This document shows, one piece after another, positions 7,751 through 41,439 of a stretch of 64,000 nt of DNA (the stretch's first letter is position 1; the number at the start of each line of letters is the position of its first letter). Source of the stretch: an uncultured Acidobacteriota bacterium. GTDB lineage: Bacteria; Acidobacteriota; Thermoanaerobaculia; Multivoradales; DATKCC01. The notes below the pieces were generated by a model. It saw only the letters and a list, made by a program, of their open reading frames with translations. It had not been told where the DNA came from and did no database searches. Where the stretch lies: contig CAVUJU010000005.1 of assembly GCA_963741925.1 (NCBI GenBank), positions 2,625,447 through 2,689,446 of the forward strand, read 5' to 3'. The position numbers were made by a program, and so were the translations under genes.

Positions 7751-8305
7751 ATGAACATCGAGTACGTCGGAAGGAACTTCGAGGTCGACGACAACGTCCG
7801 GAAGTACACCGAAGGCAAGCTCGCCAAGAAGGTCACCAAGTTCGTGGGCGACCCGGTCGAGATCCGCGTCACCCTCGAGACCGAGAAGCACCGCAACATC
7901 GCCGACCTCCACATCGCCCACAAGCACGGCATCCTCCAGGCGACCGAGGAGACCGGGGACATGTACGAGGCCATCAACATGGCCGTCGACAAGGTGGAGA
8001 AGCAGGCCCGGCGCTCGAAGAAGAAGTTCATCGACAAGCGTCGGCGCGCCGACCGCGTGACGACCAACGGCCAGCGCTGGCCCGTCGACGTCCTCGCCCG
8101 CGAGAGCCTCGGCGGCGAGACGGGCCCGACGATCATCAAGTCCAGTCATCTCCCGATCAAGCCCATGTCCATCGAGGAGGCCGCCCTCTGGCTCGAGAAC
8201 GGCAAGAACGAGTTCGTCGTCTTCCGGGACTCCACCTCGAACCGGGTCAACGTCCTCTACAAGCGCAAGGACGACAACTACGGCCTGATCGCGCCCGAGC
8301 TCTAG
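7751..8305 (+). CDS. hpf: Ribosome hibernation promoting factor (long form)
   Basis: 184 aa with the N-terminal RaiA/HPF fold (MNIEYVGRNFEVDDNVRKYTEGKL...) plus the C-terminal extension typical of long HPF. Sits in the conserved rpoN-hpf-ptsN context. Confidence 0.9.
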   Translation: MNIEYVGRNFEVDDNVRKYTEGKLAKKVTKFVGDPVEIRVTLETEKHRNIADLHIAHKHGILQATEETGDMYEAINMAVDKVEKQARRSKKKFIDKRRRADRVTTNGQRWPVDVLARESLGGETGPTIIKSSHLPIKPMSIEEAALWLENGKNEFVVFRDSTSNRVNVLYKRKDDNYGLIAPEL

Positions 8306-8394
8306 CGGCGGGTGAGGCCCCCTCGCGGCGCCGGCCCACGGGTCACCGGTTCGCCGACCCGGCCGCGGGGGCGATCTCCAACGGGCGAGCAGCC

Positions 8395-8850
8395 ATGCGA
8401 CTCGACGCTCTGACCGGTCCCGAGCTGATCCTCCCCGGGCTCGAGGCCTCGGTGGGGGAGGAGGTGCTGCGCGCGCTCTCCCGGCACCTCGAGGCGCTGC
8501 GCGTCATCCGCGACGCCCGGGAGCTCTACGACAACCTGCTCGAGCGCGAGGCGCTGGGCTCGACGGGCATCGGCTCCGGCGTCGCCATTCCTCACGGCAG
8601 GCTCGAGGGGCTGTCCCGCGCCGTGCTCGCCATCGGGATCTGCCGCCGGGGGGTCGAGTTCCGGGCCACCGACGCAGAGCCCGTCCGCCTCTTCTTCGTG
8701 GCGGTCTCCCCGAGCGACGCAGTGCCCGCCGTCCACCTCCAGGTGCTGGCGGCGATCTCCAGGTGGATCAGGGCGGATCGCCACGTCGCGCGCCTCCTCG
8801 AGCTCGACGACCCGCAGGCGATCTACCGACTGCTGGAAGAGGCGCCATGA
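8395..8850 (+). CDS. ptsN: PTS IIA-Ntr nitrogen regulatory protein
   Basis: 151 aa starting MRLDALTGPELILPG, with the EIIA-fructose/Ntr-type motif GIGSGVAIPHGRLEG (phosphorylatable His). The ORF-track entry 7126..8850 is an over-extended ORF. Confidence 0.85.
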   Translation: MRLDALTGPELILPGLEASVGEEVLRALSRHLEALRVIRDARELYDNLLEREALGSTGIGSGVAIPHGRLEGLSRAVLAIGICRRGVEFRATDAEPVRLFFVAVSPSDAVPAVHLQVLAAISRWIRADRHVARLLELDDPQAIYRLLEEAP

Positions 8851-9875
8851 GGGGCCGGCGCGGCGAGGAGCGGCCGCGGGCCGCGGTCGGCGGGCGGCTG
8901 GAGGGCAACGGCCGCACGCCGCTGGAGGCCGTGGTCACCGTCGAGGACCTCCTGGGCGAGGAGCTCGCAGACCTCCATCTCACCGTGCTCTCGGGCACTC
9001 AGCACCTGGACAACCCGATCACCAACCCGCGGGTGCAGAAGCCGGGCCTCGCCTTCGCCGGCTATTACCCCTACATCAAGCCGGGGCGGGTCCAGATCGT
9101 CGGCGAGAGCGAGACGGCCTACCTCAAGACCCTGGACGCCGGGGAGCGGGCGGCGCGCTTCGACACCATCACCTCGCTGCCGGTTCCGGTCTTCGTCGTC
9201 ACCAAGGGGCTGCCGCCCATGGAGGGATTCTTGACCCGGTGCCAGGAGCGCGAGGTCCCGGTGCTCGCCTCGCCCGCCCTGTCGTCCCAGGTCATCAAGC
9301 GGATCAGCTACTTCCTCGAGGACCGCCTGGTACCGCGCACCCACGTCCACGGCGTGCTCCTCGACATCTACGGCCTCGGCGTGCTGTTGATCGGCGGCAG
9401 CGGGGTGGGCAAGAGCGAGTGCGCCCTCGACCTCATCACCCGGGGCCACAGCCTGGTCTCCGACGACCGGGTGGCGATCAACCGCTACCCCAACGGCGAC
9501 CTGATCGGCTTCTCGGAAGGGCCGCTGCGCCATCACATGGAGCTGCGCGGCCTGGGGATCATCAACGTCCAGGACCTCTTCGGCCTGGCCGCCGTGCGCG
9601 AGCGCAAGAGCATCGACCTGGTGGTCGAGCTCGAGCACTGGCGCGAGGGCGAGCACTACGACCGCCTGGGGCTCGACGAGACCCTGTACGACATCCTCGA
9701 CACGCCCTGCCCGTACATCAAGATGCCGGTGGCGCTGGGTCGCAACGTCTCCATCCTGGTGGAGATCGCCGCCCGCAACCACGTGCTGAAGCTCCAGGGT
9801 CACCACTCGGCCCGGGAGTTCGCGCACAAGCTCGAGGACGAGCTCGATCGCCGGCGCGACGAGGAGGGCGATTGA
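8847..9875 (+). CDS. hprK: HPr kinase/phosphorylase
   Basis: P-loop GGSGVGKSECALDL, LVSDDRV and the C-terminal signature ELRGLGIINV. ATG overlaps the ptsN stop (ATGA). Confidence 0.9.
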   Translation: MRGRRGEERPRAAVGGRLEGNGRTPLEAVVTVEDLLGEELADLHLTVLSGTQHLDNPITNPRVQKPGLAFAGYYPYIKPGRVQIVGESETAYLKTLDAGERAARFDTITSLPVPVFVVTKGLPPMEGFLTRCQEREVPVLASPALSSQVIKRISYFLEDRLVPRTHVHGVLLDIYGLGVLLIGGSGVGKSECALDLITRGHSLVSDDRVAINRYPNGDLIGFSEGPLRHHMELRGLGIINVQDLFGLAAVRERKSIDLVVELEHWREGEHYDRLGLDETLYDILDTPCPYIKMPVALGRNVSILVEIAARNHVLKLQGHHSAREFAHKLEDELDRRRDEEGD

Positions 9876-10750
9876 GCACCGCGGCGGAGCGCGCCAAGCT
9901 GGTCCTGATCACCGGCCTCTCCGGCTCGGGCAAGAGCTCGGTGGCGAAGTGCTTCGAAGACCTCGGCTACCACACCGTCGACAACCTGCCGCTGCCCCTG
10001 CTGCGCGAGTTCCTCCGCCGGCCCCTCGAGCTGATCGAGGACAACGACCGGATCGCCGTGGTCACCGACGTCCGGGCGCCCCACTTCGCCGAAGAGCTGC
10101 CCCGGCTCGTCGCCGAGATCGACACCGAGCGCCTGGAGCCCACCCTGCTCTTCCTCGAGGCCTCGGACCAGAGCCTGGTGCGCCGCTTCTCGGAGACCCG
10201 CCGGCCGCATCCCCTGGCGGGTGACAGCCCGCTCATCGAGGGCATCGCGCGCGAGCGCGAGCTGCTGAGCGAGGTCCGCGGCCGGGCCGACATGGTCCTC
10301 GACACCAGCGAGTGGTCGATCCACGAGATCCGCAACCAGATCTACCGCGACTTCGCGGAGGGCACGGCCGAGGGCCCGGGCATGGTGGTGTCGCTGGTGA
10401 GCTTCGGCTTCAAGCACGGCACGCCCTACGGCGCCGACCTGCTGTTCGACGTGCGCTTCCTGCCCAACCCCCACTTCGTCCCAGGTCTCCGGGAGCTCAC
10501 CGGCAAGGACGCGCCGGTCCAGGAGTTCCTCGAGGGCCAGCCCGAGTACGGCGAGATCCTCGACCGTCTCTCCGAGCTCCTGCGCTACCTCCTTCCCCGG
10601 TACCGGCGCGAGAACCGGAGCTACGTCTCGATCGCCGTCGGGTGCACCGGCGGTCACCATCGCTCGGTGGCGATCTGCGAGGTGCTCCGCGAACGGTTGG
10701 GCGAGGCCGGATGGCAGGTCCGCGTGGTCCACCGCGACATCGCGCACTGA
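9872..10750 (+). CDS. rapZ: RNase adapter protein RapZ (YhbJ)
   Basis: Starts LVLITGLSGSGKSSVAKCFEDLGYHTVDNLPLPLL and ends GCTGGHHRSVAICEVL. TTG start overlaps the hprK stop. Matches the conserved rpoN-hpf-ptsN-hprK-rapZ order. Confidence 0.85.
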   Translation: MSTAAERAKLVLITGLSGSGKSSVAKCFEDLGYHTVDNLPLPLLREFLRRPLELIEDNDRIAVVTDVRAPHFAEELPRLVAEIDTERLEPTLLFLEASDQSLVRRFSETRRPHPLAGDSPLIEGIARERELLSEVRGRADMVLDTSEWSIHEIRNQIYRDFAEGTAEGPGMVVSLVSFGFKHGTPYGADLLFDVRFLPNPHFVPGLRELTGKDAPVQEFLEGQPEYGEILDRLSELLRYLLPRYRRENRSYVSIAVGCTGGHHRSVAICEVLRERLGEAGWQVRVVHRDIAH

Positions 10751-10776
10751 CCGGGCCGAGGCCTTACCCCCGGGCT

Positions 10777-13434
10777 TCACACCTGGACGTGCTCGAGCTC
10801 GTGGAGAAGGGCCCCGGCGTCGGCGTAGCGCTCGGCGGGGTCCTTCGCCAGGCAGCGCAGCAGGATCCCCTCGAGCTCGGAGGGAATCTCGGCCCATCGC
10901 TGCCGGGGCGGTACGGGCTCGTCGTGCAGGTGCTGGGAGATCGTCTCCAGGACCGTGCCGCCGCGGTACGGGCTCTCGGTGGTGAAGATCTCGTAGAGGA
11001 CGATGCCGCACGAGTAGACGTCGCTGCGCGCATCCACATCGCCCTCGCCGAACCGCTCCGGCGCCATGTAGCGCGGGGTCCCGATGACTTGCCCGGTCCT
11101 GGTCAGCCCGGAACCCGAGACGGCCACCGGGCGGGCGAGGCCGAAGTCGGTCAGCTTGGCGTTGCCGGCGGCGTCGAGCAGGACGTTCTCCGGCTTGACG
11201 TCGCGGTGGATCACGGCGAGCCGGTGGGCGGCGGCGAGACCCGAGCAGAGCTGCCGGGACAGCGACAGGCCGGCGGTGAACGGCAGCCGCTCGTCGGCGC
11301 GGTCCAGGAGCCCCCGGAGCGTCACCCCCCGGACGTACTCCATCGAGACGAAGGGCACGCCGTCGAGCTCGCCGAAGTCGTAGGTGCGCAGGACGTGGGG
11401 GTGGGTGACGCGCCGGGCCAGCTTCAGCTCCTCCTTGAGCCGCGCCAGGAACTCGGGGTCGTTCCAGAACTGCTGGCGGAGCACCTTGAGCGCGACCCGC
11501 TCGCCGAGCTCGCGGTCGCGCGCCCGGAACACGACGCCGACGCCGCCCGACCCGAGGATGGCCTCGATCTCGAAGCGTCCTCCCAGGACCGTTCCGACCG
11601 CGAGGCCGGTGAGCCCCACCGGGCGCGCCGCGTCGCCGTCCGCCAGCACGATCGTCCGCTTCGCCCAGGGTCCGGTGGCGAGGCGCTCGGCCTGGTCCGG
11701 GTCGAGGGCGAAGAGCTTCCGGTTGCCGAAAAGCGACGCCTGCGGCCGGAGGACCACGCCGAGCGAGGCCAGGGTCTCCCGGAGGGGACGGACCGCTTCC
11801 TCGGAGAGCAGCACCTCGCCCGGGGCGGCCTCGCGCAGCAGGGCCTCGATCTCGCGGACCGGCAGGCCGATGACCGTGGGGCCCGAGCCCCCCTCCCAGG
11901 CGAGCTCCCCCCGGACGATCCGTCCCGCGGCGATCGCCACCGTCGGGCGGAGGCTCCCGGCGCTTCCGGCCGGCCCGCCGGAGTCGGCGAGGGCCCCCAG
12001 GGTCTCGCCGGCGGTGGCCAGGGCACGATCCGCCGCCCCCTCGCCTTCGAAGGTGAGGTAGAGACGGTGGCCCGCGACCGACTCGACGCGCCCCCCCCGT
12101 TCGCCGGCGAGGCGTCCGATGCGGGCCACGTCCCGGCCGAGCGCCTGGATCGACGCCGCCGCGTCCGCAAACGGTGCCGCGTAGGCCAGGAGCTCCACCG
12201 CCACGAGGGTCGCGTCGGCCCGTTGCGCTCGGCGCGCCGGACGCGGGGGCTCGTCCTCCGGCACGGTCAGGGCGAGCTGTCCCATGTAGAGCTCGATGTC
12301 CCGTTTCTGCCGCAGGTCCGACAGCAAGTCGTCGAAGGCGGAGGCGAGCCGCGCCACCTCGTCGCGACCGCCGGTGGCCACCACCTGGTCGTAGTCGCCC
12401 TGGCGCGCCGCCTCGGCCGCCCGCAGGAGCGAGCGCACCGGGCGGAGCGCGCGGCGGGCGAGGGGATAGGAGAGCGCCAGCGCGATGAGGATCGAGGCGA
12501 CCCCACCCCCTACGAGCAGCCACTGGAGCTCGCGGAAGGTCGCGAGCTGCTCGGCCAGGGAGGTGAGGGTCACCGCGCCGCCGACCGGCCGGCCGGCGGC
12601 GTCGAGGAGCGGGCTCGCGCGGGCGAGCCAGGGTTTCCCACCCAGCTCGATCCTCCGCTCCCCGTCGCCCAGGCCGCCGGTGAACACCCGTCCGGCGCCG
12701 CCGGCCGCCTGCTCGAGCCGGGAGGCGAGCGGCGCGACGAGCGCCGGCGCGACCGAGGCGCCGACCGGCCGGAGGTGGCCGCCCGAGAGCTCGAAGAAGA
12801 CCACCTCGCCCCGGCTCACGTCCTGGACCCGCCGGGCGAGAGCGTCGTCGATGCGGTAGCCGGTCACCAGGAAGCCGTTGAGCTCGCCGCCGCGGCTCGC
12901 CGGGACGATCACGGCGTCGAAGAGCCGGTCGCCCTCGCGCCAGACCCCCGAGCCGCCGAAGTCCGAGAGCCCGGCCGCGACCAGCGGCCGCGAGGCCAGG
13001 TCCTCGCCCACCGCCTCGGGCCGGTCGGTGTGGGCCAGCACCCGGCCCTGGGGCGTGAGGACCATGGCGAAGTCGAAGCCCAGGTCCTTCTGGTTCTGCT
13101 TCATCAGGTCCAGGATCGACGCCGTGTCCTCGCTCCGGCCGGCCTCGGCGACGTAGGCGGACAGGTAGGGGTCGAGACCGAACAGGTTCGAGATCAGCGA
13201 GAGCCGCCGATAGCGCTCGTCGCGGAACGCTTTCTGGAGATTCGAGGTCCGGACCAGCTCGGCCGTCGCGTCGGCCCTGGCGATCCGCAGCCCCACCCAG
13301 GCGGTGACCGCGACCGCCAGCGCCACGGCGAAGAGGATCAGCAGCCCGGTCGCCAGGAAGATCCGGGTGGCGAGCGAGGCCCGCGAGCGCCCGGCCGGGG
13401 CCCGGCGGCCGCCGAGCGGAGGATCAGTGACCAT
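10777..13434 (-). CDS. Membrane sensor protein: periplasmic domain, TM, HAMP, degenerate class III nucleotidyl-cyclase-like domain, C-terminal Ser/Thr protein kinase
   Basis: Two TM segments flank a ~250-aa periplasmic region. HAMP-like segment (RPVRSLLRAAEAARQGDYDQVV...DDLLSDLRQK). Cyclase-homology blocks are present but the metal-binding Asp positions are changed (ATLVAVELLAY; GGRVESVAGHRLYLTFEG; TVAIAAGRIVRGEL). Complete Hanks kinase: LGSGGVGVVFRA, VALKVL, HRDVKPENVLL, DFG, GTPRYMAPE. Start taken at MVTDPP (13434); an alternative upstream start is at 13533. Confidence 0.75.
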   Translation of the reverse strand: MVTDPPLGGRRAPAGRSRASLATRIFLATGLLILFAVALAVAVTAWVGLRIARADATAELVRTSNLQKAFRDERYRRLSLISNLFGLDPYLSAYVAEAGRSEDTASILDLMKQNQKDLGFDFAMVLTPQGRVLAHTDRPEAVGEDLASRPLVAAGLSDFGGSGVWREGDRLFDAVIVPASRGGELNGFLVTGYRIDDALARRVQDVSRGEVVFFELSGGHLRPVGASVAPALVAPLASRLEQAAGGAGRVFTGGLGDGERRIELGGKPWLARASPLLDAAGRPVGGAVTLTSLAEQLATFRELQWLLVGGGVASILIALALSYPLARRALRPVRSLLRAAEAARQGDYDQVVATGGRDEVARLASAFDDLLSDLRQKRDIELYMGQLALTVPEDEPPRPARRAQRADATLVAVELLAYAAPFADAAASIQALGRDVARIGRLAGERGGRVESVAGHRLYLTFEGEGAADRALATAGETLGALADSGGPAGSAGSLRPTVAIAAGRIVRGELAWEGGSGPTVIGLPVREIEALLREAAPGEVLLSEEAVRPLRETLASLGVVLRPQASLFGNRKLFALDPDQAERLATGPWAKRTIVLADGDAARPVGLTGLAVGTVLGGRFEIEAILGSGGVGVVFRARDRELGERVALKVLRQQFWNDPEFLARLKEELKLARRVTHPHVLRTYDFGELDGVPFVSMEYVRGVTLRGLLDRADERLPFTAGLSLSRQLCSGLAAAHRLAVIHRDVKPENVLLDAAGNAKLTDFGLARPVAVSGSGLTRTGQVIGTPRYMAPERFGEGDVDARSDVYSCGIVLYEIFTTESPYRGGTVLETISQHLHDEPVPPRQRWAEIPSELEGILLRCLAKDPAERYADAGALLHELEHVQV

Positions 13435-14101
13435 CGTAGCCGCCCCGTCCGAGCCGCCGGTAGGCGCGCCCGAACTTGTCGAGATGGGGCGGGATCTTCG
13501 GCTTGGTGAGCTCGAGGAGCACCTCGGGCGCACCGCTCGAGGGCACCGGGACCGGACCGCTCCAGGGCTCCGCCTGCTCGTGCCAGACGGTCAGCGTCCC
13601 CGGGCCCTCGGGAAGCCCGCTCAGCCGGAACCGCCCCTGGTCGTCGGGAGACGTGAAGAAGGGGGTGTCGAGGACCAGGACGTAGCCCACCATGCCGTGG
13701 TGGACGTTGCAGAAGACGCGCACGACCCCGGGCCGGTCGAAGGTCACCGACCTGGCCTCGCCCCGGCCGTAGAGCCCGAGGTCGAAGCGGTAGGGGTCCG
13801 AGATCGAGAAGATGTTGTGGAGGATCGGGTCGCGGTTGGGGAAGGAGACCGTGGTCCCCGTCACCACCGCCAGGATCCGGGGCTCGAAGGACTTGTCGCG
13901 GGTCGCCATGCGCGGCGCCTCGGCGGGCGCGTGGAGCGCCACCGGGCGGTCGGGCCGCCAGGAGACGACCGCCCGGCCCGCCTCCCCGGGGACCGTGCGG
14001 CCGTGGGAGACCACCTCGACCCGGCCGGCGAGCTCGGCCGCGCCGGCGGCGGCGGGCAGCAGGGCGAGGCAGAGGGCGGCGGCCGGAACCCGAGCGGTCA
14101 T
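13424..14101 (-). CDS. Secreted cupredoxin-like (type-1 copper site) protein with C-terminal beta-sandwich
   Basis: Signal peptide MTARVPAAALCLALLPAAAGA. Candidate Cu ligand pattern H...C-x2-H-x2-M (HNIFS ... CNVHHGM). Overlaps the downstream kinase start by 11 nt, implying an operon. Confidence 0.6.
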   Translation of the reverse strand: MTARVPAAALCLALLPAAAGAAELAGRVEVVSHGRTVPGEAGRAVVSWRPDRPVALHAPAEAPRMATRDKSFEPRILAVVTGTTVSFPNRDPILHNIFSISDPYRFDLGLYGRGEARSVTFDRPGVVRVFCNVHHGMVGYVLVLDTPFFTSPDDQGRFRLSGLPEGPGTLTVWHEQAEPWSGPVPVPSSGAPEVLLELTKPKIPPHLDKFGRAYRRLGRGGYDGH

Positions 14102-14103
14102 GG

Positions 14104-15508
14104 TCAGCGAGTCCAGCGCAGGGTGACCAGGGTCTCGTCGTCGGTGCCGTCGCCGTTCGCCCGCTGGAAGGTGTTGGCGGCGTGCTCGGCGGTCAGGTCG
14201 ATCCCCGGCAGGATCCCGAGACGAAGGCCCAGGTCGACCTTCTCCCAGTCCCAGGCGCCGCTGGGGAAGGGCGTCACGGCGGGGTTGGCGAAGCGGTTGT
14301 CGAGCGCCGAGTAGCGAACCGCGGGCTGGACGTAGGGGAAGAGCTGGCGGCCGGCGACCGCCCAGCGCAGCGGCAGGTCGAGAGCCCAGGCGAGCTCGAC
14401 TTCGTAGCCGCTGCGCGGCAGCGACGCCACCTCCTGATCCACGTACTGACCGAACAGGGAGAGGCCGCCCAGGTAGAGCCAGAGGTTCGCCCCGGCCTCG
14501 GTCTTGGTGTCGCCGGAGAGGCCCGGGTAGGGGTACTGGTTCCAGGGGCCGCGGAGGAAGTCGAGGTCGCCGCCGTAGAAGGTGCCCTGGAGCTCCACCG
14601 TGTCGGCCAGCTTGCGGCGGTAGCCGTAGACCATGAAGTCGATCGCCCGCTCGCCCGCGGCGTCGGCCCAGCGCCCGCCGGCCGCCGCACCGACCTCGAG
14701 GTTGCCGTCGGCGTCGAGCCCTTCGACCTCGGCGTCGTAGAGGATCGGGATGCCGCTCTTGAGCGTCGGATCGGGGTGCGGGCGCAGGAAGGCGTCGGTG
14801 CCGTTGTCACCCGCCAGGGCGTTCGGGTCGCGGAAGAAGAGGGGGTTGCCCTGGGTGAGGGAGCCCTTCACGTAGAGATGGCCGCCGAGGTCCAGGCCGA
14901 GCTCTAGACCGAAGTCCTCCATCCGGTTGAAGGCCGTGGACACGACGCCGTAGGACTCCAGGTGGCGGTCGTTCTGGCGCTCCATCTTCGGGAACTTGCC
15001 GATCTGGACGTAGCCGCCGAACCCGTCGGCCGGCGTCGCGGGAACGATCGGCCGGCCGAAGCGCAACCAGGCCTCGTCGACGTCCACCTGGCGGTCGCCG
15101 GAGGTGGGGTTGCGGTCGTAGAGGTCGAAGAAGTCGACCTTGGCGTGCGCCTGGACCGCCTCGCCCCAGCGCGCGTCGGCGTAGAGGGTGAAGACGGAGA
15201 AGCTCCAGGTGGTCGCCGGCGTTGACCGTCTCGAGGAACGCGCGGTCCTGGCCCACCGGCAGCATGTCGGGCGTGAAGGGGAAGTCGACCGGGAAGCGGT
15301 TCTCGTCGCTGTGCCGGAAGTGCGTCCTGGCCTCCAGCCGGAGGTCCACCCGCAGGCTCGGCGCGTCGCCGGCCTCCGGCGCGGCCGCCTCCGGACCCGC
15401 GGCCCCGCCCTGGGCCGCCGCCGGCCCGGCGAGGAGGACACCCACGAGCAGGAGGAAGGGAAGGGGGCGAGAGCTTGGGATCCGCGCCCTCAGAGCCAGT
15501 GAAGCCAT
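14104..15508 (-). CDS. Putative outer-membrane beta-barrel protein, apparent frameshift near 15205-15215
   Basis: Signal peptide MASLALRARIPSSRPLPFLLLVGVLLAGPAAAQG in one frame (ATG 15508). After ~15210 the reading continues in a second frame (FSVFTLYADARWGEAVQAHAKVDFFDLY...), with alternating hydrophobic beta-strand character to the C-terminus (...LVTLRWTR). Confidence 0.5.
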
Positions 15509-15540
15509 CTCCGGCCTTACCGCGGGCGCCCCCGAATCAC

Positions 15541-15605
15541 CCCTCGCAGCGTTGCGCCTCCTCGAGGTAGGCCCTGCTACGCCTGCGTCTGCGCGCCCGG
15601 CGAGG
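15541..15605. repeat. Dispersed ~60-bp intergenic repeat family B (cgacgcaggcgtagcagggcctacstcgaggaggmgcaacgc), reverse orientation
   Basis: Reverse complement matches the copies at 30650-30715 and 42590-42665. Lies between convergent operons. Confidence 0.5.
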
Positions 15606-15925
15606 GGCGCACGGACCACCGCGCTCCGCGCGGCGGTGCCCACGCCCTCGCGACGGGCGGAGAGGTCTTCACAGGCTCTCAGCGGAGACGATCCACGGGT
15701 CCTTGCCAACGGGTGGCTCCCTCTGTGAGTCCGACGAGAAGGACCGACCCTACCACGGAGCGCGGTCCGTGCCGGAGCCCCTCGCCGAGCCACGAGGCCC
15801 GCCCGGGCGGCCGGGGAAGGTGGAAGCGGCGGCCCGCGTTGTAGAGGCTGAGCCCGCTTCGAGTCTGGTAGGCTCGCAGGTCGACGACGCCCACAGCGAA
15901 ACCGTAGAGATCCCCAACCCTTCGA

Positions 15926-16417
15926 ATGATCGGGACCCTGATCCTGAGCCACGGCCGCCTCGCCGACGAGCTCCTCGCGGCCGCCCGGACCATCACCGGC
16001 GGCCTGGAGGGCTTCGGCGCCCTGTCCCTCGACTGGAGCGACGGCTTCGAAGAGGCCAAGACCCAGATCCGGGATGCCCTGGAGCACCTCGATCGCGGCG
16101 ACGGCGTGCTGATCCTCACCGACATGTTCGGGGGAACGCCGTGCAACGTCGCCCTCACCTTCCTCGATCCGGGTCGGGTGGAGATCGTCACCGGCGTCAA
16201 CCTGCCCATGGTCGTCCGGCTCGCCTGCTTGGGACGGCGGGAGCTCACGGTCTCCGAGGCCGCGAGCTGGCTGCGCGACAAGGGCCGTCACAGCATCTGC
16301 CTGGCGAGCGACATCCAGGCCCAGCGCTGCCCGCCGCCGGGCGGCTGCTCCGACGCCGCCGAGGAGGCCGCCCGGGAGGCGGCGGAGGTGGGCGCCGGTC
16401 GCGAGGATCGCGGGTGA
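15926..16417 (+). CDS. PTS mannose-family EIIA component
   Basis: 163 aa (MIGTLILSHGRLADELLAAARTITG...GVLILTDMFGGTPCNV), matching EIIA-Man with a phosphorylatable His near the N-terminus. Confidence 0.8.
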   Translation: MIGTLILSHGRLADELLAAARTITGGLEGFGALSLDWSDGFEEAKTQIRDALEHLDRGDGVLILTDMFGGTPCNVALTFLDPGRVEIVTGVNLPMVVRLACLGRRELTVSEAASWLRDKGRHSICLASDIQAQRCPPPGGCSDAAEEAAREAAEVGAGREDRG

Positions 16418-16683
16418 TCGAGCGCGAGGTCGAAATCGTCAACCGACTCGGCCTCCACGCTCGCGCCGCCTCCAAGCTCGTTCACCTGGCGGCGTCGTTC
16501 CAGAGCGACGTGGCCCTGGTCCAGGATGGCGAGGAGGTGGACGCCAAGAGCATCCTCGGCATCTTGCTGCTGGCGGCGGGGCAGGGCAACCGCATCGTCC
16601 TGCGCTGCGAGGGCGAAGACGAGGAGCAGGCCATGGCCGCGATCACCGGGCTGATCGCGGACCGCTTCGACGAGGAGTCCTGA
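16414..16683 (+). CDS. ptsH: Phosphocarrier protein HPr
   Basis: 89 aa (VIEREVEIVNRLGLHARAASKLV...) with active-site His15 and the Ser46 region GKSILGILLLAAGQG. GTG overlaps the EIIA stop. Confidence 0.85.
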   Translation: MIEREVEIVNRLGLHARAASKLVHLAASFQSDVALVQDGEEVDAKSILGILLLAAGQGNRIVLRCEGEDEEQAMAAITGLIADRFDEES

Positions 16684-16698
16684 GCGGGATCGACGGCG

Positions 16699-18490
16699 AT
16701 GGGCCATGACAACGAGGAGATCGTGAAGCGCGCGCAAATGCGGATTCTGCAGGGCGTCGGCGTCTCGGGCGGCATCGCCATCGGCCGAGCCGTGGTGGTC
16801 GAGACGCGGGCTCTGGAGGTTTACAGGATCCCGCTCGCCGACGCCGACGTGGAGCCGGAGATCGAGCGCTTCGCCGAGGCGGTGGAGCAGGCCCGGGCGG
16901 AGGTGGCGCGCACCCGGCAGCGGGCCGGCGAGGACCTGGGCGAGCACACGGGGGCGATCTTCGACGCCCACCTCCTGGTGCTCTGCGACACCGGCTTCCT
17001 CGATCGCGTCACCGAGCGGATCCGCCAGGAGCGGGTCAACGCCGAGTGGGCCGTCTACCGTGCCGCCGAGGAGTACGCCGGACGCTTCGCGGCGATGGAG
17101 AACGAGTACATCCGCGAGCGCCGCATCGACATCGAGGACGTGGTCCACCACCTGCTGCGCCGCCTCCAGGGGATCTCTCACCACGAGCTGTCCGAGATCG
17201 AGGGGCCGATGGTGATCGTCGCCGACGACCTGACGCCGTCGGAGGCGGTCCGGCTGGGGCGGGGCCGGGCGGTCGGCTTCGCCATCGAGAGCGGGGGCCG
17301 CACCTCCCACACCACGATCATCGCTCGCTCGCTCGGGCTGCCGGCGGTCACCGGTCTGGGCGAGGTCACCGAGCTCGTCACCGACGAGGACCCGGTGATC
17401 ATCGACGGGCAGGAGGGGGTGGTGATCCTGCACCCGACCCGCTCGACGCTCAAGCGCTACCGGCACCGGCTCGCCGAGATGGAGAGTCGCGAGATCAGCC
17501 TCCTCGAGACCCGGGAAGCTCGAGGCGCGGACCGCGGACGGTGACGCCATCCAGCTCATGGCCAACATCGACCTGCCCGAGGAGCTCGAGGACGTCCTCG
17601 CCTTCGGCGCCCGCGGGATCGGCCTCTACCGCAGCGAGTTCCTGTACATCGAGAGGAGCCCGGAGCTGCCCAGCGAGGAGGAGCACCTGGCCCTCTATCG
17701 GCACCTGGTCGAGGCCGCCGCCCCCGAGCCGGTGATCATCCGGACCTACGACCTCGGCGGGCGCAAGCTCGCCCAGGAGCTGCTCGAGACCCACGAGGAC
17801 AACCCGGTGCTCGGCCTGCGCGGCATCCGGCTGACCCTGGCGCGGCCGCAGGTGTTCAAGGCCCAGATCCGGGCCCTCCTGCGCGCCGGCCTCTACGGCG
17901 ATCTGCGGCTCATGCTGCCCCTGATCTCGGGGCTCGACGAGGTCCGGGCCTTCCGCGCCTTCGCCGCCGAGGTCATGGCGGAGCTCGAGGCCGAGGGCCT
18001 CGAGTACCGGCGGGACCTGCCCCTGGGGGTCATGATCGAGGTGCCCTCGGCGGCGGTCATCGCGGACGTCCTGGCCCGCGAGGTGGACTTCTTCTCCATC
18101 GGCACCAACGACTTGATCCAGTACTCCCTGGCGGTCGACCGCAACAACGAGCACGTCGCCGACCTCTACCAGCCGGCGCATCCGGCGATCCTGCGCATGC
18201 TACGCTTCGTGATCTGCAGCGCGGCGGAGGCCGGGATCGAGGTGGGGCTGTGCGGCGAGATGGCCGCCGACCCCCGCTATGCGGCGCTCCTGATCGGCCT
18301 CGGGCTGCGCCGCTTGTCGGTGACGCCGCGGTCGGTCCCGGCGCTCAAGCAGCGGATCCGGGGGCTGGCGGCGGAGGCCCTCGCCGAGCTCGCGGAGCGC
18401 TGCCTGGAGCTCGGCACCGCCGCCGAGGTGGAGGACCTCCTGGACTCGGCGCTCGACCCCATGGTCGAGACCGCCGCGAGGCGGGCATAG
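16699..18490 (+). CDS. ptsI: Phosphoenolpyruvate-protein phosphotransferase (Enzyme I), apparent frameshift near 17512-17518
   Basis: N-terminal half 16699-17544 holds the phospho-His domain (GGRTSHTTIIARSLGLP). The C-terminal PEP-utilising half 17558-18490 (GIGLYRSEFLY...IGTNDLIQY...CGEMAADP) is in a different frame. The junction lies in a ccgggaag homopolymer context. Confidence 0.85.
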
Positions 18491-33677: not shown

Positions 33678-36600
33678 ACCGGGATTCTAATGGTCACCGC
33701 GAGGCCGCCGCCAGGACGGTTGCGGGCGGCGATGGTCCCGCCGTGCTCCTCGGCGATGCGCCGGGCGATGGGCAGGCCGAGCCCGGTCCCGGTGTCGTAG
33801 GTCGAGAAGTAGGGGTCGAAGATCCTGCCCAGGAGGTCGGGCTCGACCCCCGGGCCCGCGTCGAGCACCGCCACGCTCGCCGTGCCGTCGGCGCTCGCCA
33901 CCCGCACGGCGACCCGCCCCTTGCCGGCGTTGGCCCGGACCGCGTTCTCCACCAGGTTGCGCACCGCGCGGCCGAGAAGCCGGGCGTCGAAGCGGGCGGG
34001 AACCTCCGGCTCGGCCGCCTCCAGGCTCACCTCGGCCCCCACCGCGCCCGAGCTGCGGTACGCCTCCACCAGGTGCTCCATCGCCGCCACCAGGTCCCCG
34101 GGCTGGAGGTCGATCTTGGGGATCGAGCTGAAGGTCGAGAACTCCGAGGCGATCTGGCGCAGCTCCTCGACCTGGCGCAGGATGTTCGTGGTGCAACGCT
34201 CGAAGACCTCGTCGAAGCCCTCGCCGTGGTTGCGATGGACCTCGCGCATGTGCTCGGTCGACAGGCGCAGAGGGGTGAGCGGGTTCTTGATCTCGTGGGC
34301 GATGATCCGCGCCATCTCGGCCCAGGCCTGCAGCCGCTGGCCGCGCAGGACCTCCGTGGCGTCCTCTACCACCAGCAGGGCCGTCGGCTCGCCCTCGCCG
34401 GGGACCGGCACCCAGACCAGGCTCCACTCCCGCTCCTCGCCGCCGTCCTGCGGCGCCAAGCGCACCGTGGTCCGGCGGATCCGGTGGCCGGCCTCGGCCA
34501 GGAAGCCGGCGACCGGCGCCAGGCGCTCGGAGCCCGCGAGCGCGTCGTCGACCCGCTCCCCCACCCCGACCCCGAGGAGCTCGCGGGCCACCCGGTTGTG
34601 CATCAGGACGCGCCGTTGCCGGTCGAGGGAGATCACCCCGGAGGTGATGTTTTCGACCATCCGCTCGACCACCTGCTTCTCGCGCACCAGGCGTGAGCGG
34701 CTCTCGGCGATCCGCCCGGCCATCTCGTCCACCGCCTCGACCAGGGCCGCGAGCTCGAGCTCGGACGGGGCGAGCTCGAGGGAGGTGGCGCCCGAGGCGA
34801 TCCGCCGGGTCCCCTCCACCAGCTCCTCGATCGGCCGGCTGAAGCGGCGGGCGAGGACCACGCCGACCGCGATCAGCAGCCCGAAGAGGGCCGCCGAGGC
34901 CAGGATCACGCGCCGCCTCAGGGAGGCGAGCTCGTGGGCCACCTCCTCCTGCTGGGCGAGGAGCGGCATCGAGAGGAAGAGCCGCTCGGTGTCGGCCGGC
35001 GCCCCGGGGATGCGCAGCGGCGCGTAGAGCTCCAGGTAGTCCACGTCGCGCGCCACGTTGGTTCGCGAGCCGCCGCCGTAGCCGAGCAGCGTGAGGCGGG
35101 AGTAGATCTCCCCCGGGATGCGCTCGGGCAGGAGCCCGGCGGCGAAGAGCTCGGGCTTGCTCGAGGCCCAGATCGAGCTCCCCCAGTAGAGGTTCACCTC
35201 GTGGTGGACCACCCGGGAGACCCACATCAGGAGCTGGTCGTCGACCAGGGTGGTGAAGTCGAACCCCGGCTCGAGGGTCGCCACGTAGTCCCCGATCACC
35301 CGCTGGGTCGAGGCGAGCGCCGCCTCGCCCGCCGAGCGCTGCTCCCGGTTCAGCCGCTCCTCGGCGTCGGACAGGATCACCAGGTTGAGGAGCAGGAGGG
35401 GAACGAGGAGGAGCCCGGTGACGACGATGACCAGCCGCTTCGAGTACGAGCGCAACGTGCGCCGGGCGGCGTCCCGGAACGCCGGCCGGGGCAGGGCGAA
35501 GAGCAGGAGCAGCCCGGCCGCCGCCAGCAGCGCCGCGAGGTTGCCCACGGCGTGGCTGCCCACCCGTTCCAGGGCCTGAACCGGCAGCAGGAGCGGCAGG
35601 TAGACGACCTCGATGCCGTCGGGTCCGTGGTGGGCCCAGGCCCACGCCGAGCCGACCGGCGTCTCGACCCGGGCGCGGCCACCGTGGCCGGCGGCGAGGC
35701 CGGCGAGCCCGGTGGGAAGGGGCGGCCCTTCCGGCCATGGCGAGACGAGCGCCCTCCCCTGCTCCGTGTAGAGGCCGTACGCCGCCACCTCCGGTAGCCC
35801 CTGGATCCGGCGGTCCGCCACCGAGCGCCCGCGCAGCAGCCCGAGCTCGATGGCGTCGAACGAGGCCCGGCGCCCCAGATCGAACCCCGGACGCGGCAGG
35901 AGCCAGTAGCGCGCGACCGCCCACGGCCGGCCGGCGTAGGAGAGCACCGCGTGGCCCGAGATCAGGGTGTCCTCCCAGACCGGCAGACGGAGGTCTTCCC
36001 AGCGGCCGAGGGCTGGCGGCGAGGACTCGGAGCCGGTCACCAGGGGGCCGAACGAGAAGGTCGACGAGCTTCCCGGAGAAGGGCTCCACCACCAGGGCGG
36101 AGAGGGTGTTGGGCTGGGCCAGGGGCGAGCGCCGCCAGAGGGCGAACGCCAGGTCCTCCCGTCCGAGCCCGTTCGGATTCCGGGGTACCAGGGTCGCGAG
36201 ATCGAGGTCCTGGAAGTGCGCCTCCAGCTCGCTCCCGACCCGCGCGCGCGCGGCCGGCGGCGGAGGCGCCAGCTCGCTCTGGCAGGTCGCGCCGAGCTCC
36301 TGCTTGAGCTCGGCGCGGTACGCCGTCTCCCAGGCCCCCGCTGCGAGGAGCGCGGCGAGCAGGAGGGCGACCGCGCCCGGCAACGGGTGGCGCAGGCGCC
36401 GGTCGCTCACCCAGCGCGCCGCCGCCGCGCCGCCCACCGCCAGGAGCCCGAGGCCGGCCGGGACCAGGTCGTGGACGGCGCCCGCCGCCACCAGGCACCC
36501 GACGGCAGCCCACGCCCACGCGTCGGTCGCCGGCCGGCGGGGCGCGCCCGCCTCGCGCAGGCGGCGGCCGGCGGTCCGCCCGGCGAGGAGCAGCAAGGCC

Positions 36601-37877
36601 AGGGCGAGGGCCGCGAAGGCGGCCCGCAGGGTCATCGCTCCCGGGCCCAGCCACAGCGAGGCCGCGAGGTCGAGGCTCGGAGTGGAGGCTCCCGCCTCAC
36701 CCGGCACCGGCAGGCCGAGACCGAAGCCGTGGATGGTGAGCCAGGCGGCCGCCGCCACCAGCAGGGCCGCCGGAGCTCCCAGCGCCGCCGCGATCCAGCC
36801 CCGGCGGCCGGCGGGCTCCAGGGCCGCCGCCGCCGCGGCCAGGACGATCCCCGCCGCCAGGGCTCCGGCGGCAAACGGAGTCGCCCCGCTCGCGAGGGCC
36901 GCCGCCCCCGCCGCCGCCGCGCCCAGCAGGCCGATCGCCGCCCCGGCCTGCCGGCCCGCCAGCTCCGCCGGACGAGTGCCGGGCAGGGCCAGGCGCAGCC
37001 CCCGGATCACGGTCACGGCCACGAGCAGCAGCGCGAGGCAGCCCCACGCGACCCGGCGCGGCCACCGGCGGACCGGGCCCGGCACCCCGGGCGGATCGGC
37101 GCTCGGCCGGAGCACCACCAGCGACGGCAGCCCCGGAACCTCGACGGCGACCGCCCCGGGGGCGCTGGCCACGCCGGCCGGTGCCAGCGACCATCGGACG
37201 CCGTAGCGCCCCGGCGCCAGGGCCAGGCCGGCCGGCGCCTCGAACGGCCAGCGATCGGTGGCGTAGCTGCGGCCCGCGACCAGCCGCCAGGGACGGCGGG
37301 CGTCGTCGAGCGGCTGGATCGCCACCAGGGTCACCGCCCCGAAGCTGGCGTAGAAGTCCCGGCCGGAGCGGGCGAGCTCCGAGGGCTCGGGCTCGTTGAG
37401 CAGGCCCTCGCCGGCCCAGGCGACGGCCTCGCCGTCGGGGTCGACCAGCAGCAGCGTGGGCCGGGACGAGGCCCCCTCGCGCGCCTGTCCCACGATCTCG
37501 GCGAGGCGCCGGAAGGCTTCGAGGCGGTAGGCGTCGTCGTTCGAGGGCGCCGGAAGAGCCGCCGCCGCCTGCTTCGCCTCGGCCGTCAGGCCCTGCCAGA
37601 GGGCGGCGTAGCGGGTGGCCACCTCCGGCGGCAGGTCGGTGGCCGCCGGCAGGACGTCCAGGCGGTCGGCGGCCCAGGGCAGGACGAGGGCGCCGGCGGC
37701 GAGGACGAGCAGGGCGGTGGCGAGCCAGCGCCCCCGGCGCACCGCGGAGAGCGCCAGCCAGCCCGCCCCGAGGACGGCGACGGCGAGGGCGGACCAGGGG
37801 GCCGGCAGCAGCGGCGCAGCGGGAGAGGCCGCCAGGAGGACCGTCCCGATCCAGAGCCGCTGGTCAGTCCAGCGCAT
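33674..37877 (-). CDS. NtrY-like sensor histidine kinase with ~600-aa N-terminal multi-TM/sensor extension (single gene split by a homopolymer frameshift at ~36043)
   Basis: N-terminal part 37877-36045 (MRWTDQRLWIG...) has many Ala/Leu-rich TM segments. The C-terminal part (ORF 33674..36040) has TM, HAMP, PAS-like, HisKA (IAHEIKNPLTPLRLSTEHM) and HATPase_c (GTGLGLPIARRIAEEHGG) domains. The frames differ by one base in a cggCCCCCtgg run. Confidence 0.7.
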
Positions 37878-37889
37878 GGCCTTCGCGCC

Positions 37890-39557
<1,668 letters not shown>

Positions 39558-39612: not shown

Positions 39613-41439
39613 CTACCCGGTGAGCGCGTGCTTCTCCATCTTGGCGGCCAGGGTGTTGCGGGAAATCCCCAGCAGGCGCGCCGCCCGCGACTTGTTGCCG
39701 CCGGTCCGGCGCAGCGCCTCGAGGATCGCCGACTGCTCCGCCCCCGCCACCAGCCGGTCGAGCTCCAGGTCCGATCCCGGCTCGACCCGGGAGGCGGCGT
39801 GGAGCGGGCTCGCCTTGACCGCCTCGGGCAGGAGGTTCAAGTCCACCGGCCGGCCGTGCGGGCAGAGATAGACCATCTGGCGCGCGATGTTCTCCAGCTC
39901 GGCCATGTTGCCGGGGTAGTCGTAGGCGAGCAGCGCGGTCATCGCCTTGGTGGTGATGCCCGCCACCCGCTTGCCGGTCTCGTGGCAGAACCGGTTGATG
40001 TACGACTGGACGAGCAGCGGCAGGTCCGCCTTCCTCTGGCGCAGGGGCGGCACGTCGATGACGAAGCGCGAGAGGCGGTAGGCCAGATCGACCCGGAACT
40101 CGTCCCGGGCGACCGCCGGCTCGAGCGGCCGGTGAGAGGCGGCGACCAGGCGCACGTCGACCCGCGTCACCTCGCGGCTGCCCGCCGGCTCGACCTCGCC
40201 GGAGCGCAGGAAGCGGACGAGGCGCGCCTGGAGCTCCAGGGGCAGCCGGTCGACCTCGTCGAGGAACAGGGTGCCGCCGCCGGCGAGGAGGAGCTTGCCC
40301 TCGCGCTTGACCGGCCCGCCCTTGGTCGCGACCTCCGAGCCGAACAGGTCGGCCTCGACCTGGGTCGCGTTCGCTCCCGAGCCGAGGGCGGTGATGAACG
40401 GGCCGTTGCGCCCCGGGCTCGAGAGGTGGATCGAGCGGGCGAGGAGCTCGCGCCCGACGCCCGGTTCGCCGCGCAGCAAGACGTGGACCCCCGTGTCCAC
40501 CGCCACCCGCAGCCGCGCGAGGACCTCCTTCATCGCCTCCGACTCCCCCACCACCAGCCGCGGGTCGAGGGTGAGGTCCTGGACCCCGCGGTTGCCCGGC
40601 AGGATCGGCTCGTACCGGCCCACGTGGTGGACCAGCCCGAGCGACAGGAGGTCGCCCAGGGCGAAGAGCGCCCCCTCCGGCGACCACGCCGCGGGATCGA
40701 AGCGGCGCAGGACGACGATCATGAAGTACGGGCGGTCGAGAGCGCTGAACACCCGGTAGAAGGTCCAGGCGGGCTCGCCCGCGAGGCGGCCCGCGAAGAA
40801 CAGGCTCCGGGCCTCCCCGTCCCCGGCCTCGTGGCGGCGCTCCTTGATCGCTTCGAGCAGGGCGTCGCCGCTCGCCAGCCAGTCCGGGTCGGTGGCGCTC
40901 GCGAACTTGATCCCGGCGCTTTCGAGGTCGCCGAGGAAGAGGAAGAGCGCCCCGCCGCCGAAATCGGCGAGCACGCGCTCCATCAGGGACTCGAGGGTGG
41001 TCCGGCTCTCCGCGTCGGCGAGGACCCAGTTGCTGATCCGGGCCAGGTGTTCGAGCATCAGCGCCGCCGTCATCACCGGCGGGCCGGCCTCCGAAGCCGC
41101 TGGCTCGGGCTCCTCCGGCGCCGGCCCGGCCTCGGCCTCGGGCGCCATGTCCTCGACCAGCAGGGTGACGCCGCCCATGCGCACCTCGTCCAGGAGCTCG
41201 AGGTCGGCCTCCTTGACCCGCCGTCCGTCCACCAGGAGGCCCCGGCGGCTCCCCAGGTCTTCGACGCGGAGCACCCGGCCGTCGTAGGTCAGGCGGGCGT
41301 GGCGCTGGGCGACGCCGGTGTACGGCAGCACGATGTCGCACTCGGCCTGGCTGCCGATCACCAGCTCGCGCCGGTGGATCGGGAAACGGCGGACCCCGTC
41401 CGGGGCGTAGGCGACGAGGCGGAGCACGGCCGCTAGCAA
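39613..41439 (-). CDS. FHA-domain transcriptional regulator of the sigma-54 activator (bEBP) family with degenerate ATPase motifs
   Basis: N-terminal FHA ([27 protein letters not shown]), central AAA+ sigma-54-interaction-like domain and a C-terminal Fis-type HTH ([18 protein letters not shown]). Walker A is GEPGVGRE (Lys to Arg). The GAFTGA loop is replaced by VATKGG. Confidence 0.8.

Follow-up and report, generated by a model that had tools for sequence, protein, structure and literature searches.

A degenerate cyclase-homology domain ahead of an intact Hanks-type kinase in a predicted cupredoxin-linked envelope operon of an uncultured Acidobacteriota bacterium

What does a cyclase-homology domain do in a receptor kinase once its catalytic residues are gone? 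The question is raised by a locus in the genome of an uncultured Acidobacteriota bacterium (GTDB lineage Bacteria; Acidobacteriota; Thermoanaerobaculia; Multivoradales; DATKCC01; GenBank assembly GCA_963741925.1). The stretch of DNA that was analysed, termed the window, comprises 64,000 nucleotides of contig CAVUJU010000005.1 (positions 2,625,447 to 2,689,446, forward strand), and the locus is a three-gene unit on its minus strand at 10777-15508. In the 5′ to 3′ direction, the genes encode a predicted outer-membrane barrel, a predicted secreted cupredoxin, and an 885-residue membrane receptor in which a class III cyclase-homology domain (CHD) precedes a Ser/Thr kinase. A first-pass annotation, made by a model from the sequence alone, had placed the three genes at these coordinates, and they do lie exactly there, on the minus strand. 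The same annotation had read the receptor as a pseudo-cyclase joined to a working kinase.

The roughly 200 residues between the HAMP domain and the kinase escape the standard family libraries. In the window protein they have no Pfam match, and PF00211 is absent at E<=0.1; none of 30 family members reaches PF00211 even at E<=1, and NCBIfam likewise has no match for the middle domain. Because PF00211 is not matched, relatives of the receptor are annotated only as kinases. A different picture emerges from a profile built on an alignment of the middle region of 30 homologs and searched against all PDB sequences. It matches solely class III cyclases down to E ~0.08, the best being Cya2 (2w01, E=7.3e-9), a phytochrome-cyclase fusion (6fht, 8.5e-8) and CyaB (3r5g, 3e-7). 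An AlphaFold model of the domain on the 30-homolog alignment has a pLDDT of 85.2 and a pTM of 0.80. When this model is compared with the PDB by Foldseek, the top 50 matches are all class III cyclases, with CyaC as the best (1wc4, E=1.4e-10, TM-score 0.72). By sequence profile and predicted fold, then, the middle domain is a real CHD. The first-pass annotation had named a mismatch with cyclase models as the result that would count against it, and both kinds of comparison return cyclases. A GGDEF-like reading of the domain was considered and rejected, since the profile and fold matches are all to class III cyclases.

The catalytic positions of this CHD have been extensively replaced. The canonical positions were set by HMMER alignments to Cya2 and CyaB and counted in 108 full-length homologs. 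The first metal-binding Asp is Glu414 in the window protein, which carries the motif ATLVAVELLAY at residue 408, and is Glu in 96/108 homologs and Asp in 6/108. The second metal-binding Asp is His456 (His in 93/108, Gln in 7/108). The substrate-defining Lys (or Glu), expected four residues ahead of the second Asp, is Ser452, a position occupied by Ala, Gly or Ser in the family, and its partner (Asp, Thr or Cys in cyclases) is Thr520 (Ala in 75/108). Finally, of the canonical G-x-x-V-N-x-A-x-R residues, the transition-state Asn is Arg527 (Gln in 77/108, Ala in 17/108, Arg in 4/108) and the transition-state Arg is Ala531 (Ser in 75/108, Gly in 16/108). Five of the six catalytic residues are replaced in the window CHD, and the substituted metal-binding Asp positions reported at first pass are among them. 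Set against the features of a class III cyclase, the domain lacks the two metal Asp residues, the substrate Lys with its partner as a pair, the transition-state Asn and Arg, and a gathering-level score to PF00211, while it shares the CHD fold and is recognisably homologous to cyclases of known structure.

The Gly and Phe positions that build the fold are nevertheless invariant, and new residues have become fixed at or near the old active site, namely Arg457 (100/108) and the pair Arg534-Glu535 (105/108). This pattern suggests that the CHD is under selection and is not simply rotting. Judging from these residues, cyclase chemistry is lost while the fold is kept under purifying selection, and the receptor should not be filed as a cyclase, since the defining catalytic features of one are missing. 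That the domain is still an active cyclase, with Glu and His serving as its metal ligands, and the protein a bifunctional cyclase-kinase, is hardly credible. Glu can ligate Mg or Mn, the first Asp is conservatively replaced, and a sister clade (P0368, P0360 and P0369, see below) keeps the Asp, Lys, Asp, Thr/Ser and Arg residues and may be active; in the window protein, however, Ser, His, Arg and Ala stand in place of the substrate Lys, the second Asp, the Asn and the Arg, and the PF00211 search was empty for all 30 members.

The kinase domain that follows the CHD is complete. It scores 169.2 bits with Pkinase PF00069 against a cut-off of 31.7, and all of its motifs are intact in the window protein: GxGxxG, Lys650, Glu669, HRD743-745, Asn750, DFG763-765, APE, the subdomain IX Asp and the subdomain XI Arg. 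The Gly loop, Lys, helix-C Glu, HRD, Asn, DFG, APE and the subdomain IX Asp are invariant in 108/108 homologs, the subdomain XI Arg is present in 107/108, and the activation-loop Thr778 in 106/108. By its motifs the domain is catalytically intact, i.e. a predicted working Hanks kinase, and its description at first pass as fully intact can be kept.

The sensor half of the receptor is conventional in layout (Table 1). Two transmembrane segments bracket the double-Cache (dCache) region, which places the sensor in the periplasm and the output domains in the cytoplasm, and the dCache_3 family of Pfam matches residues 93-285 (E=6.7e-7, 29.6 bits against a cut-off of 25.7). The HAMP region also gives weak matches to YfiN and to YfiR-associated kinase models. 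An 885-residue membrane protein with a periplasmic domain and HAMP, as described at first pass, is therefore what the two transmembrane segments, dCache_3 and HAMP delineate. Between HAMP and the CHD lies a signalling helix that occupies the position of the N-terminal helix in HAMP-linked class III cyclases. Its invariant columns in the family alignment A2 are L57, R58, K60, D62, E64 and Y66, and the helix is still present in an ortholog from Wenzhouxiangella that has no CHD.

Table 1. Positions of the features of the three-gene unit in the window
Feature	Coordinates	Strand	Basis or description
Receptor Ser/Thr kinase gene	10777..13434	-	885 aa, identical to P0001; open reading frame, Pfam, ~112 full-length homologs
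Receptor domain order			Transmembrane segment 1, dCache, transmembrane segment 2, HAMP, helix, pseudo-cyclase, linker, Hanks kinase
Transmembrane segment 1, residues 25-43	13306..13362	-	Kyte-Doolittle 19-residue window, score 2.85
Periplasmic double-Cache region, residues 44-302	12529..13305	-	Between both transmembrane segments
Transmembrane segment 2, residues 303-321	12472..12528	-	Hydropathy score 2.06
HAMP, residues 325-376	12307..12462	-	PF00672 E=1.9e-10
HAMP-to-CHD signalling helix (LSDLRQKRDIELYMGQL...)	12226..12306	-	Invariant L, R, K, D, E, Y
Degenerate class III CHD, residues ~404-587	11674..12225	-	Profile against PDB, AlphaFold, Foldseek, residue counts
Hanks-type Ser/Thr kinase domain, residues 622-873	10816..11571	-	PF00069 E=1.5e-49, RD kinase
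Secreted cupredoxin gene (predicted)	13424..14101	-	225 aa: signal peptide, type-1 copper domain, Ig-like CarboxypepD_reg-like domain, basic C-terminal tail
Type-1 copper ligand codons	13691..13819	-	His95 13817-13819, Cys131 13709-13711, His134 13700-13702, Met137 13691-13693
Cupredoxin C-terminal motif P-x-H-x-(N/D)-K-x-G-x-x-Y, residues 200-216	13454..13504	-	Conservation in 120 homologs
Porin-like outer-membrane barrel gene, unnamed family, frameshifted	14104..15508	-	Two frames; signal-peptide-like N-terminus
1-base insertion site, TT at 15200-15201	15199..15202	-	DNA alignment to L006 and L008; tblastn frame switch

The relatives of the receptor carry the CHD in several states of preservation. 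The six catalytic positions were typed in 151 proteins, comprising 148 library representatives, the window protein and two homologs. At one end is the sister clade of P0368, P0360 and P0369, which reads Asp, Lys, Asp, Thr/Ser, His and Arg, with the Asn alone changed, and which reaches the gathering score of PF00211 at 43-49 bits (43.5 for P0368). The near-intact clade is known from one locus, L087, and a metagenome scan for further near-intact members returned just distant cyclases at 32-41% identity. The L087-type protein is possibly a bifunctional receptor cyclase-kinase. At this locus (3881-8634 of L087, GCA_029263435.1, which encodes P0368), the cupredoxin gene overlaps the kinase gene and the barrel gene is divergent. 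At the other end, the CHD of L003, a metagenome-assembled genome (MAG) of the Xanthomonadales, is more degenerate still, and Wenzhouxiangella sp. XN201 (L086) and a related Xanthomonadales MAG (L101) encode a barrel, a cupredoxin and a receptor of 680 or 691 residues without a CHD. In these two receptors, the HAMP-output helix is joined to the kinase via ~35 residues. The simplest reading of the series is an ancestral receptor cyclase-kinase whose CHD has decayed in most lines and been lost in one. The near-intact (L087) and CHD-less (L086, L101) relatives both strengthen the original view of the window protein as a pseudo-cyclase joined to an intact kinase.

The architecture is unannotated, but it is not rare. 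A species scan, with one genome per species and the HAMP+CHD alignment as query, found at least 235 contigs that encode a relative of the receptor, almost all of them from Thermoanaerobaculia, Holophagales or other Acidobacteriota. In a profile search of 1.84 billion cluster representatives, 102 clusters at 50% identity were matched at E<=1e-30 and 521 at E<=1e-10, and nearly all of the matching proteins are 840-930 residues long, with the CHD at approximately residues 390-620. The first-pass annotation had held a pseudo-cyclase acting as a dimerisation or regulatory module for a Ser/Thr kinase to be unusual in bacteria; by these numbers, the architecture is not. A full-text literature search of incomplete coverage turned up no account of a receptor with HAMP, CHD and kinase in this order, nor of a cupredoxin paired with a kinase.

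The three genes of the window are closely spaced on the same strand, as expected of an operon. The cupredoxin and kinase genes overlap by 11 nt (ATGGTCACTGA), and the barrel stop codon is separated from the cupredoxin start codon by 2 nt (TGA-CC-ATG). The overlapping stop and start codons described at first pass are therefore found at the second junction, while the first has a gap. Scans for sigma-70 promoters and terminators, together with Rfam on 10000-16500, gave nothing useful, consensus scans being uninformative at the ~72% G+C of the window.

Gene neighbourhoods were counted in the best 80 related loci, with smaller denominators for loci that had enough sequence. The kinase gene is immediately preceded by the cupredoxin gene at 80/80 loci, and the cupredoxin gene in turn by the barrel gene at 54/66. 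The flanking genes vary from locus to locus, and the module is also found in Gammaproteobacteria (Xanthomonadales, Wenzhouxiangella) and so crosses phyla. A lack of co-conservation in related genomes had been named at first pass as a result that would tell against the proposal; what was found is co-conservation of the three genes under varied flanks and in two phyla. On this evidence from gene order, the three genes probably form one envelope signalling operon. That they are mere neighbours, the cupredoxin being a respiratory electron carrier and the barrel a general porin, is very improbable. Cupredoxins are usually electron carriers, and the nearest folds of the barrel are general and specific porins, yet the adjacency of cupredoxin and kinase holds at every locus counted, with overlapping frames and across flanks, gene orders and two phyla, and respiratory genes do not accompany the trio.

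The cupredoxin is predicted to be a type-1 copper protein from its ligand set and its Copper-bind match (PF00127, 29.4 bits against a cut-off of 21.2). Its ligands His95 (within ILHNIFS), Cys131, His134 and Met137 are each invariant in 120/120 homologs. The short-loop spacing Cys131-x2-His134-x2-Met137 is that of amicyanin. The N-terminus is basic and then hydrophobic (AAALCLALLPAAAGA), which predicts export from hydropathy only, and the Ig-like C-terminal domain is a weak CarboxypepD_reg-like match of 20 bits. It is followed by a basic tail with a distinctive motif, in which H206, K209 and Y214 are present in 120/120 homologs and G211 in 118/120. The motif also occurs in the gammaproteobacterial and L087 orthologs, and is thus nearly invariant across phyla. 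The motif could serve for docking, as a peptide, or form a second site for a metal. The Wenzhouxiangella ortholog carries the lipobox LFGC; at L086 (7001-11359) and L101 (5001-9413), the cupredoxin appears as a lipoprotein with this lipobox and a ~100-residue acidic, Pro-rich linker.

Among known cupredoxins, the protein resembles amicyanin, plastocyanin and pseudoazurin in its His...Cys-x2-His-x2-Met ligand set and in scoring above the Copper-bind cut-off. It differs from them in an extra N-terminal beta segment, the C-terminal Ig-like domain and the invariant basic tail, and in being tied genomically to a kinase instead of to redox enzymes. The NCBIfam models for plastocyanin (19.6 against a cut-off of 87.85) and pseudoazurin (16.9 against 109.85) both fall far short.

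The barrel is the least orthodox member of the unit at the sequence level. No Pfam match was found in 26 family members at E<=1, no PDB sequence match at E<=10, and no NCBIfam match. An intact ortholog, P0390, is 87% identical to the window protein and gives an AlphaFold model of ~16 long antiparallel strands (pLDDT 81.7, pTM 0.83). The best Foldseek matches of this model are all outer-membrane porins: OprP (2o4v, E=2.7e-12, TM-score 0.53-0.59), DcaP, OprB, OprO and OmpK36. The model, together with the signal-peptide-like N-terminus of the window protein, supports a 16-strand barrel. It is like the OprP/OprO porins in being structurally closest to them, and unlike them in having no sequence-level relation and an unusual degree of conservation, with 61% mean column identity and 65-69% identity between Acidobacteriota and cultured Wenzhouxiangella. 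Exceptional conservation of this kind suggests more than a passive pore, or a recent horizontal transfer. The family (P0390-P0508) has long invariant motifs, including ERQxDRHLESYG and RDPNALAGDNG.

In the window, the barrel gene is split by one extra base, reading GAGCTTCTCC where the closest relatives read GAGCT-CTCG. The result is two frames, 14807-15508 and 14104-15441; the signal peptide and first ~100 residues are in the frame from 15508 and the other 366 residues in the frame to 14104. The deposited annotation calls just a 327-residue fragment (P0389). The outer-membrane barrel proposed at first pass is thus upheld as a fold, through the ortholog model, and is not a single open frame, the annotation having read through the insertion near 15200.

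The insertion is most likely an assembly indel. This is argued by the housekeeping gene ptsI, 2 kb away, which is likewise split by a frameshift; by other long-read MFD MAGs that are broken in the same operon (L006, L040, P0114); and by the two barrel fragments, which are 80-87% identical to intact orthologs and have no further lesions. The breaks elsewhere affect the kinase N-terminus and ptsI in L006; the barrel, kinase and GAF-HD genes in L040; and the kinase in P0114. In the window, ptsI (16699-18490) is broken at ~17520-17545 into the open reading frames 16699-17544 (N-terminal and mobile domains) and 17558-18490 (PEP-binding domain), and the joining sequence ...ARTADGDAIQLMANI... reads in the third frame, which again suggests assembly indels. 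It is also conceivable that the frameshift is real and the operon is decaying in this genome, so that the module works without a pore or not at all. The inserted base, the truncated deposited protein and the natural existence of a barrel-less subclade (L017, L020, L021 and L063) would fit such decay, while the broken ptsI, the similar breaks in the other MFD MAGs and the otherwise undamaged barrel fragments fit assembly indels instead and make decay rather unlikely.

The genes next to the unit in related genomes point to possible outputs. A gene encoding a GAF-HD protein, which carries the HD and HHExxDGxGYP motifs of HD-GYP enzymes, lies directly downstream of the kinase gene at 56/68 loci. 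Further downstream, at 43/60 loci, is an FHA-GAF-adenylyl cyclase that keeps all six canonical catalytic residues. The operon is extended in this way at, for example, L002 8672-11620 and L004 9373-12174. The pseudo-CHD profile scores the neighbouring true cyclase slightly higher, at 43 bits, which is not taken as evidence of descent. In the barrel-less subclade, an ECF sigma factor gene is instead directly downstream of the kinase gene (as at L017 9808-10900 and L020 9851-11047) and is followed by a gene for a small anti-sigma-like protein without a Pfam match. L003 (6001-10339) and L102 (5001-10364) have the order cupredoxin, kinase and Porin_5-type porin, and in L102 a 288-residue tandem-FHA protein comes after the porin. 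The joining of two unrelated porin families to the same cupredoxin-kinase pair argues that an outer-membrane channel is functionally required.

The idea that the kinase signals to FHA-domain proteins, as suggested at first pass, gains from the FHA-GAF-cyclase and tandem-FHA genes downstream in relatives; the particular substrate proposed then, a regulator at 39613-41439 in the window, does not, as nothing links it to the kinase. This minus-strand gene encodes an FHA domain, a sigma-54 AAA+ activator domain and HTH_8. When the FHA-GAF-cyclase and GAF-HD-GYP proteins of relatives were searched against the window by tblastn, its FHA domain was the only match. The gene is 26 kb from the kinase gene, and a specific link between the two was rejected for want of evidence.

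Taken together, these features suggest a signalling route through the envelope, with the cupredoxin as co-sensor, the pseudo-cyclase as transducer and the kinase acting on FHA effectors, which is judged the likelier account of the locus. The 16-strand porin-like barrel would give the periplasm access to the signal or a partner protein, or would hold it. The Sec-exported cupredoxin would serve as a periplasmic co-sensor that reports its copper loading or redox state to the dCache domain, so that a role in metal or redox sensing, as raised at first pass, may be entertained by inference from the gene pairing. The signal would then pass through transmembrane segment 2, HAMP and the conserved helix to the dimeric pseudo-CHD, as in active HAMP-linked receptor cyclases. 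As a dimer, the pseudo-cyclase would serve as transducer or regulator, determining how the two C-terminal kinase domains are placed relative to each other for trans-autophosphorylation, probably on the activation-loop Thr778. The phosphothreonine would in turn recruit FHA-domain effectors. In relatives, the next-door outputs would be the FHA-GAF-adenylyl cyclase and GAF-HD-GYP protein, the tandem-FHA protein or, alternatively, the ECF sigma factor.

Several observations weigh against this account. The contact between cupredoxin and dCache, the kind of signal and the part played by the barrel are read from gene pairing only, and in this assembly the barrel gene is interrupted. Neither the window nor its clade (L006-L008) has an FHA, cyclase or HD-GYP gene next to the operon. 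The CHD-less orthologs imply that the pseudo-cyclase is dispensable for coupling HAMP to the kinase, and if coupling proceeds without a CHD, a purely passive relay fails to explain why the CHD is retained. Moreover, Glu414, His456, Arg457 and Arg534-Glu535 are conserved in or close to what was once the active site, a sign that the domain may do more than dimerise.

Such a function is the substance of the main rival explanation, in which the pseudo-CHD is a putative allosteric module that binds a nucleotide, a cyclic nucleotide from the neighbouring FHA-GAF-cyclase, a metal or a phospho-residue, and its remodelled site gates the kinase. The degenerate sites of heterodimeric cyclases are known to bind regulators such as forskolin. 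In the present family, the old catalytic positions are fixed to new residues (Glu in 96, His in 93, the next Arg in 100 and Arg-Glu in 105 of the 108 homologs, the last of these within the former Asn-Arg helix), HAMP alone can drive the kinase, to judge from the CHD-less orthologs, so that retention of the CHD needs an added function, and genes for a true cyclase and an HD-GYP protein are present at most of the loci that have a pseudo-CHD. However, the window clade keeps its pseudo-CHD without an adjacent cyclase or HD-GYP gene, and the pocket is not uniform, the window protein having Leu and not Arg at two residues after the first Asp position, and Arg and Ala in place of Gln and Ser. An allosteric module is rated as unlikely, and the dimeric transducer remains the preferred description of the pseudo-cyclase.

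An evolutionary extension of the transducer account can also be sketched, although as a whole it is speculative and doubtful. An ancestral bifunctional dCache-HAMP-cyclase-kinase, of which the L087 clade would be a survivor, might have become a regulatory pseudoenzyme with a conserved Glu/His/Arg pocket, and the synthesis of cyclic AMP might have passed to the FHA-GAF-adenylyl cyclase that phosphothreonine recruits. The cupredoxin, working with a dedicated pore in the outer membrane, would then be the first copper or redox protein known to act as co-receptor for a Hanks kinase in bacteria.

How does this receptor compare with known systems? Membrane class III adenylyl cyclases linked to HAMP include the mycobacterial proteins Rv3645, Rv1318c-Rv1320c and Rv2435c. 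The receptor shares with them the layout of transmembrane receptor, HAMP, helix and CHD; its CHD fold is confirmed by the comparisons above, and P0368 of the sister clade scores with PF00211. It differs from them in the replacement of five of six catalytic residues, in the Hanks kinase after the CHD, and in a dCache domain paired with a cupredoxin gene. By its predicted domains, the protein as far as the CHD resembles a HAMP-linked class III cyclase, and the remainder a receptor Hanks kinase.

Animal receptor guanylyl cyclases such as GC-A/NPR-A consist of an ectodomain, a transmembrane segment, a kinase-homology pseudokinase, a coiled coil and an active cyclase. Like the window protein, they are single-chain dimeric receptors that combine a kinase fold with a class III cyclase fold, one of which is a pseudoenzyme that regulates or relays. 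Both order and roles are reversed here, where the pseudo-CHD comes first and the kinase, active by its motifs, comes last. The reversed order had been pointed out at first pass and is borne out, with the CHD inactive by its residues. The likeness is one of analogy only, and the fusion shows no evidence of common descent.

Hanks kinases and CHDs also meet in one bacterial protein in the TOMM kinase/cyclase fusions of TIGR03903 and in other fusions in which a Pkinase domain is followed by a cyclase. In TIGR03903-type fusions, however, the kinase is N-terminal, the CHD comes next, and a long C-terminal extension follows, with no dCache or HAMP. The TIGR03903 model gives 144.6 bits on the window receptor against a cut-off of 705.75, with the kinase domain alone aligned, so that the receptor falls outside this family.

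The pairing of receptor and cupredoxin recalls LuxP-LuxQ and TorT-TorS, in which a periplasmic partner protein is read by a sensor of the double-PAS or Cache type. As in LuxP-LuxQ, the gene for a periplasmic protein adjoins, and is presumably co-translated with, that of a receptor with a double Cache-like domain. In contrast to LuxP-LuxQ, the partner here is a type-1 cupredoxin and not a solute-binding protein, the kinase is a Ser/Thr and not a histidine kinase, and contact between the partners is conjectural. A further parallel is YfiBNR, which consists of an outer-membrane lipoprotein, a periplasmic repressor and an inner-membrane HAMP-GGDEF enzyme. Both are three-part operons that span the envelope, with outer-membrane, periplasmic and inner-membrane HAMP-receptor components, while the proteins themselves (here a porin-like barrel, a cupredoxin and a kinase output) are unrelated, so that the resemblance is one of logic only.

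Far less is understood about the receptor Ser/Thr kinases of bacteria than about two-component systems, and the signal is known for hardly any of them. An obligatory partner in the periplasm, with a cofactor whose state is accessible to spectroscopy, would offer a handle on the signal of the receptor. Moreover, a pseudo-cyclase placed between HAMP and a kinase, with natural near-intact and CHD-less controls, would be ideal for asking what a pseudo-cyclase does and how a HAMP-to-CHD connection is reused. The recurrent genetic link at these loci also joins Ser/Thr phosphorylation, through FHA domains, to cyclic-nucleotide enzymes. The receptor family is abundant in soil Acidobacteria, in which signalling is essentially unexplored, and, since Pfam does not see the CHD, the annotation of thousands of these proteins goes no further than "protein kinase".

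Plus-strand genes border the minus-strand unit on both sides, with hpf, ptsN, hprK and rapZ on one flank, the last ending at 10750, and EIIA-Man, HPr, PtsI and MiaB on the other, the first starting at 15926. The kinase operon lies in inverted orientation within a cluster of the nitrogen phosphotransferase system (PTS) type (7751-10750 and 15926-18490). Among the 80 related loci, this nitrogen-PTS context is shared with only L006, the locus of the closest relative found, the uncultured Acidobacteriota MAG MFD01721.bin.1.17, whose PTS flanks are the same as those of the window at 81-93% protein identity.

Other parts of the window contain features of separate interest. The segment 33687-39623 has a very high G+C content (0.79 at 36001-38000, with an AT skew of 0.27 there), and it contains overlapping open reading frames of more than 1200 residues on both strands, none with a Pfam match. 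A 1299-residue RHS-repeat protein is encoded on the plus strand at 47109-51008 (RHS_repeat, E=4.6e-43). Finally, the plus-strand gene at 52116-55259 encodes an unusually long DnaG-type primase, a 1047-residue open reading frame with a CHC2 zinc finger, a Toprim domain and the DnaG core.

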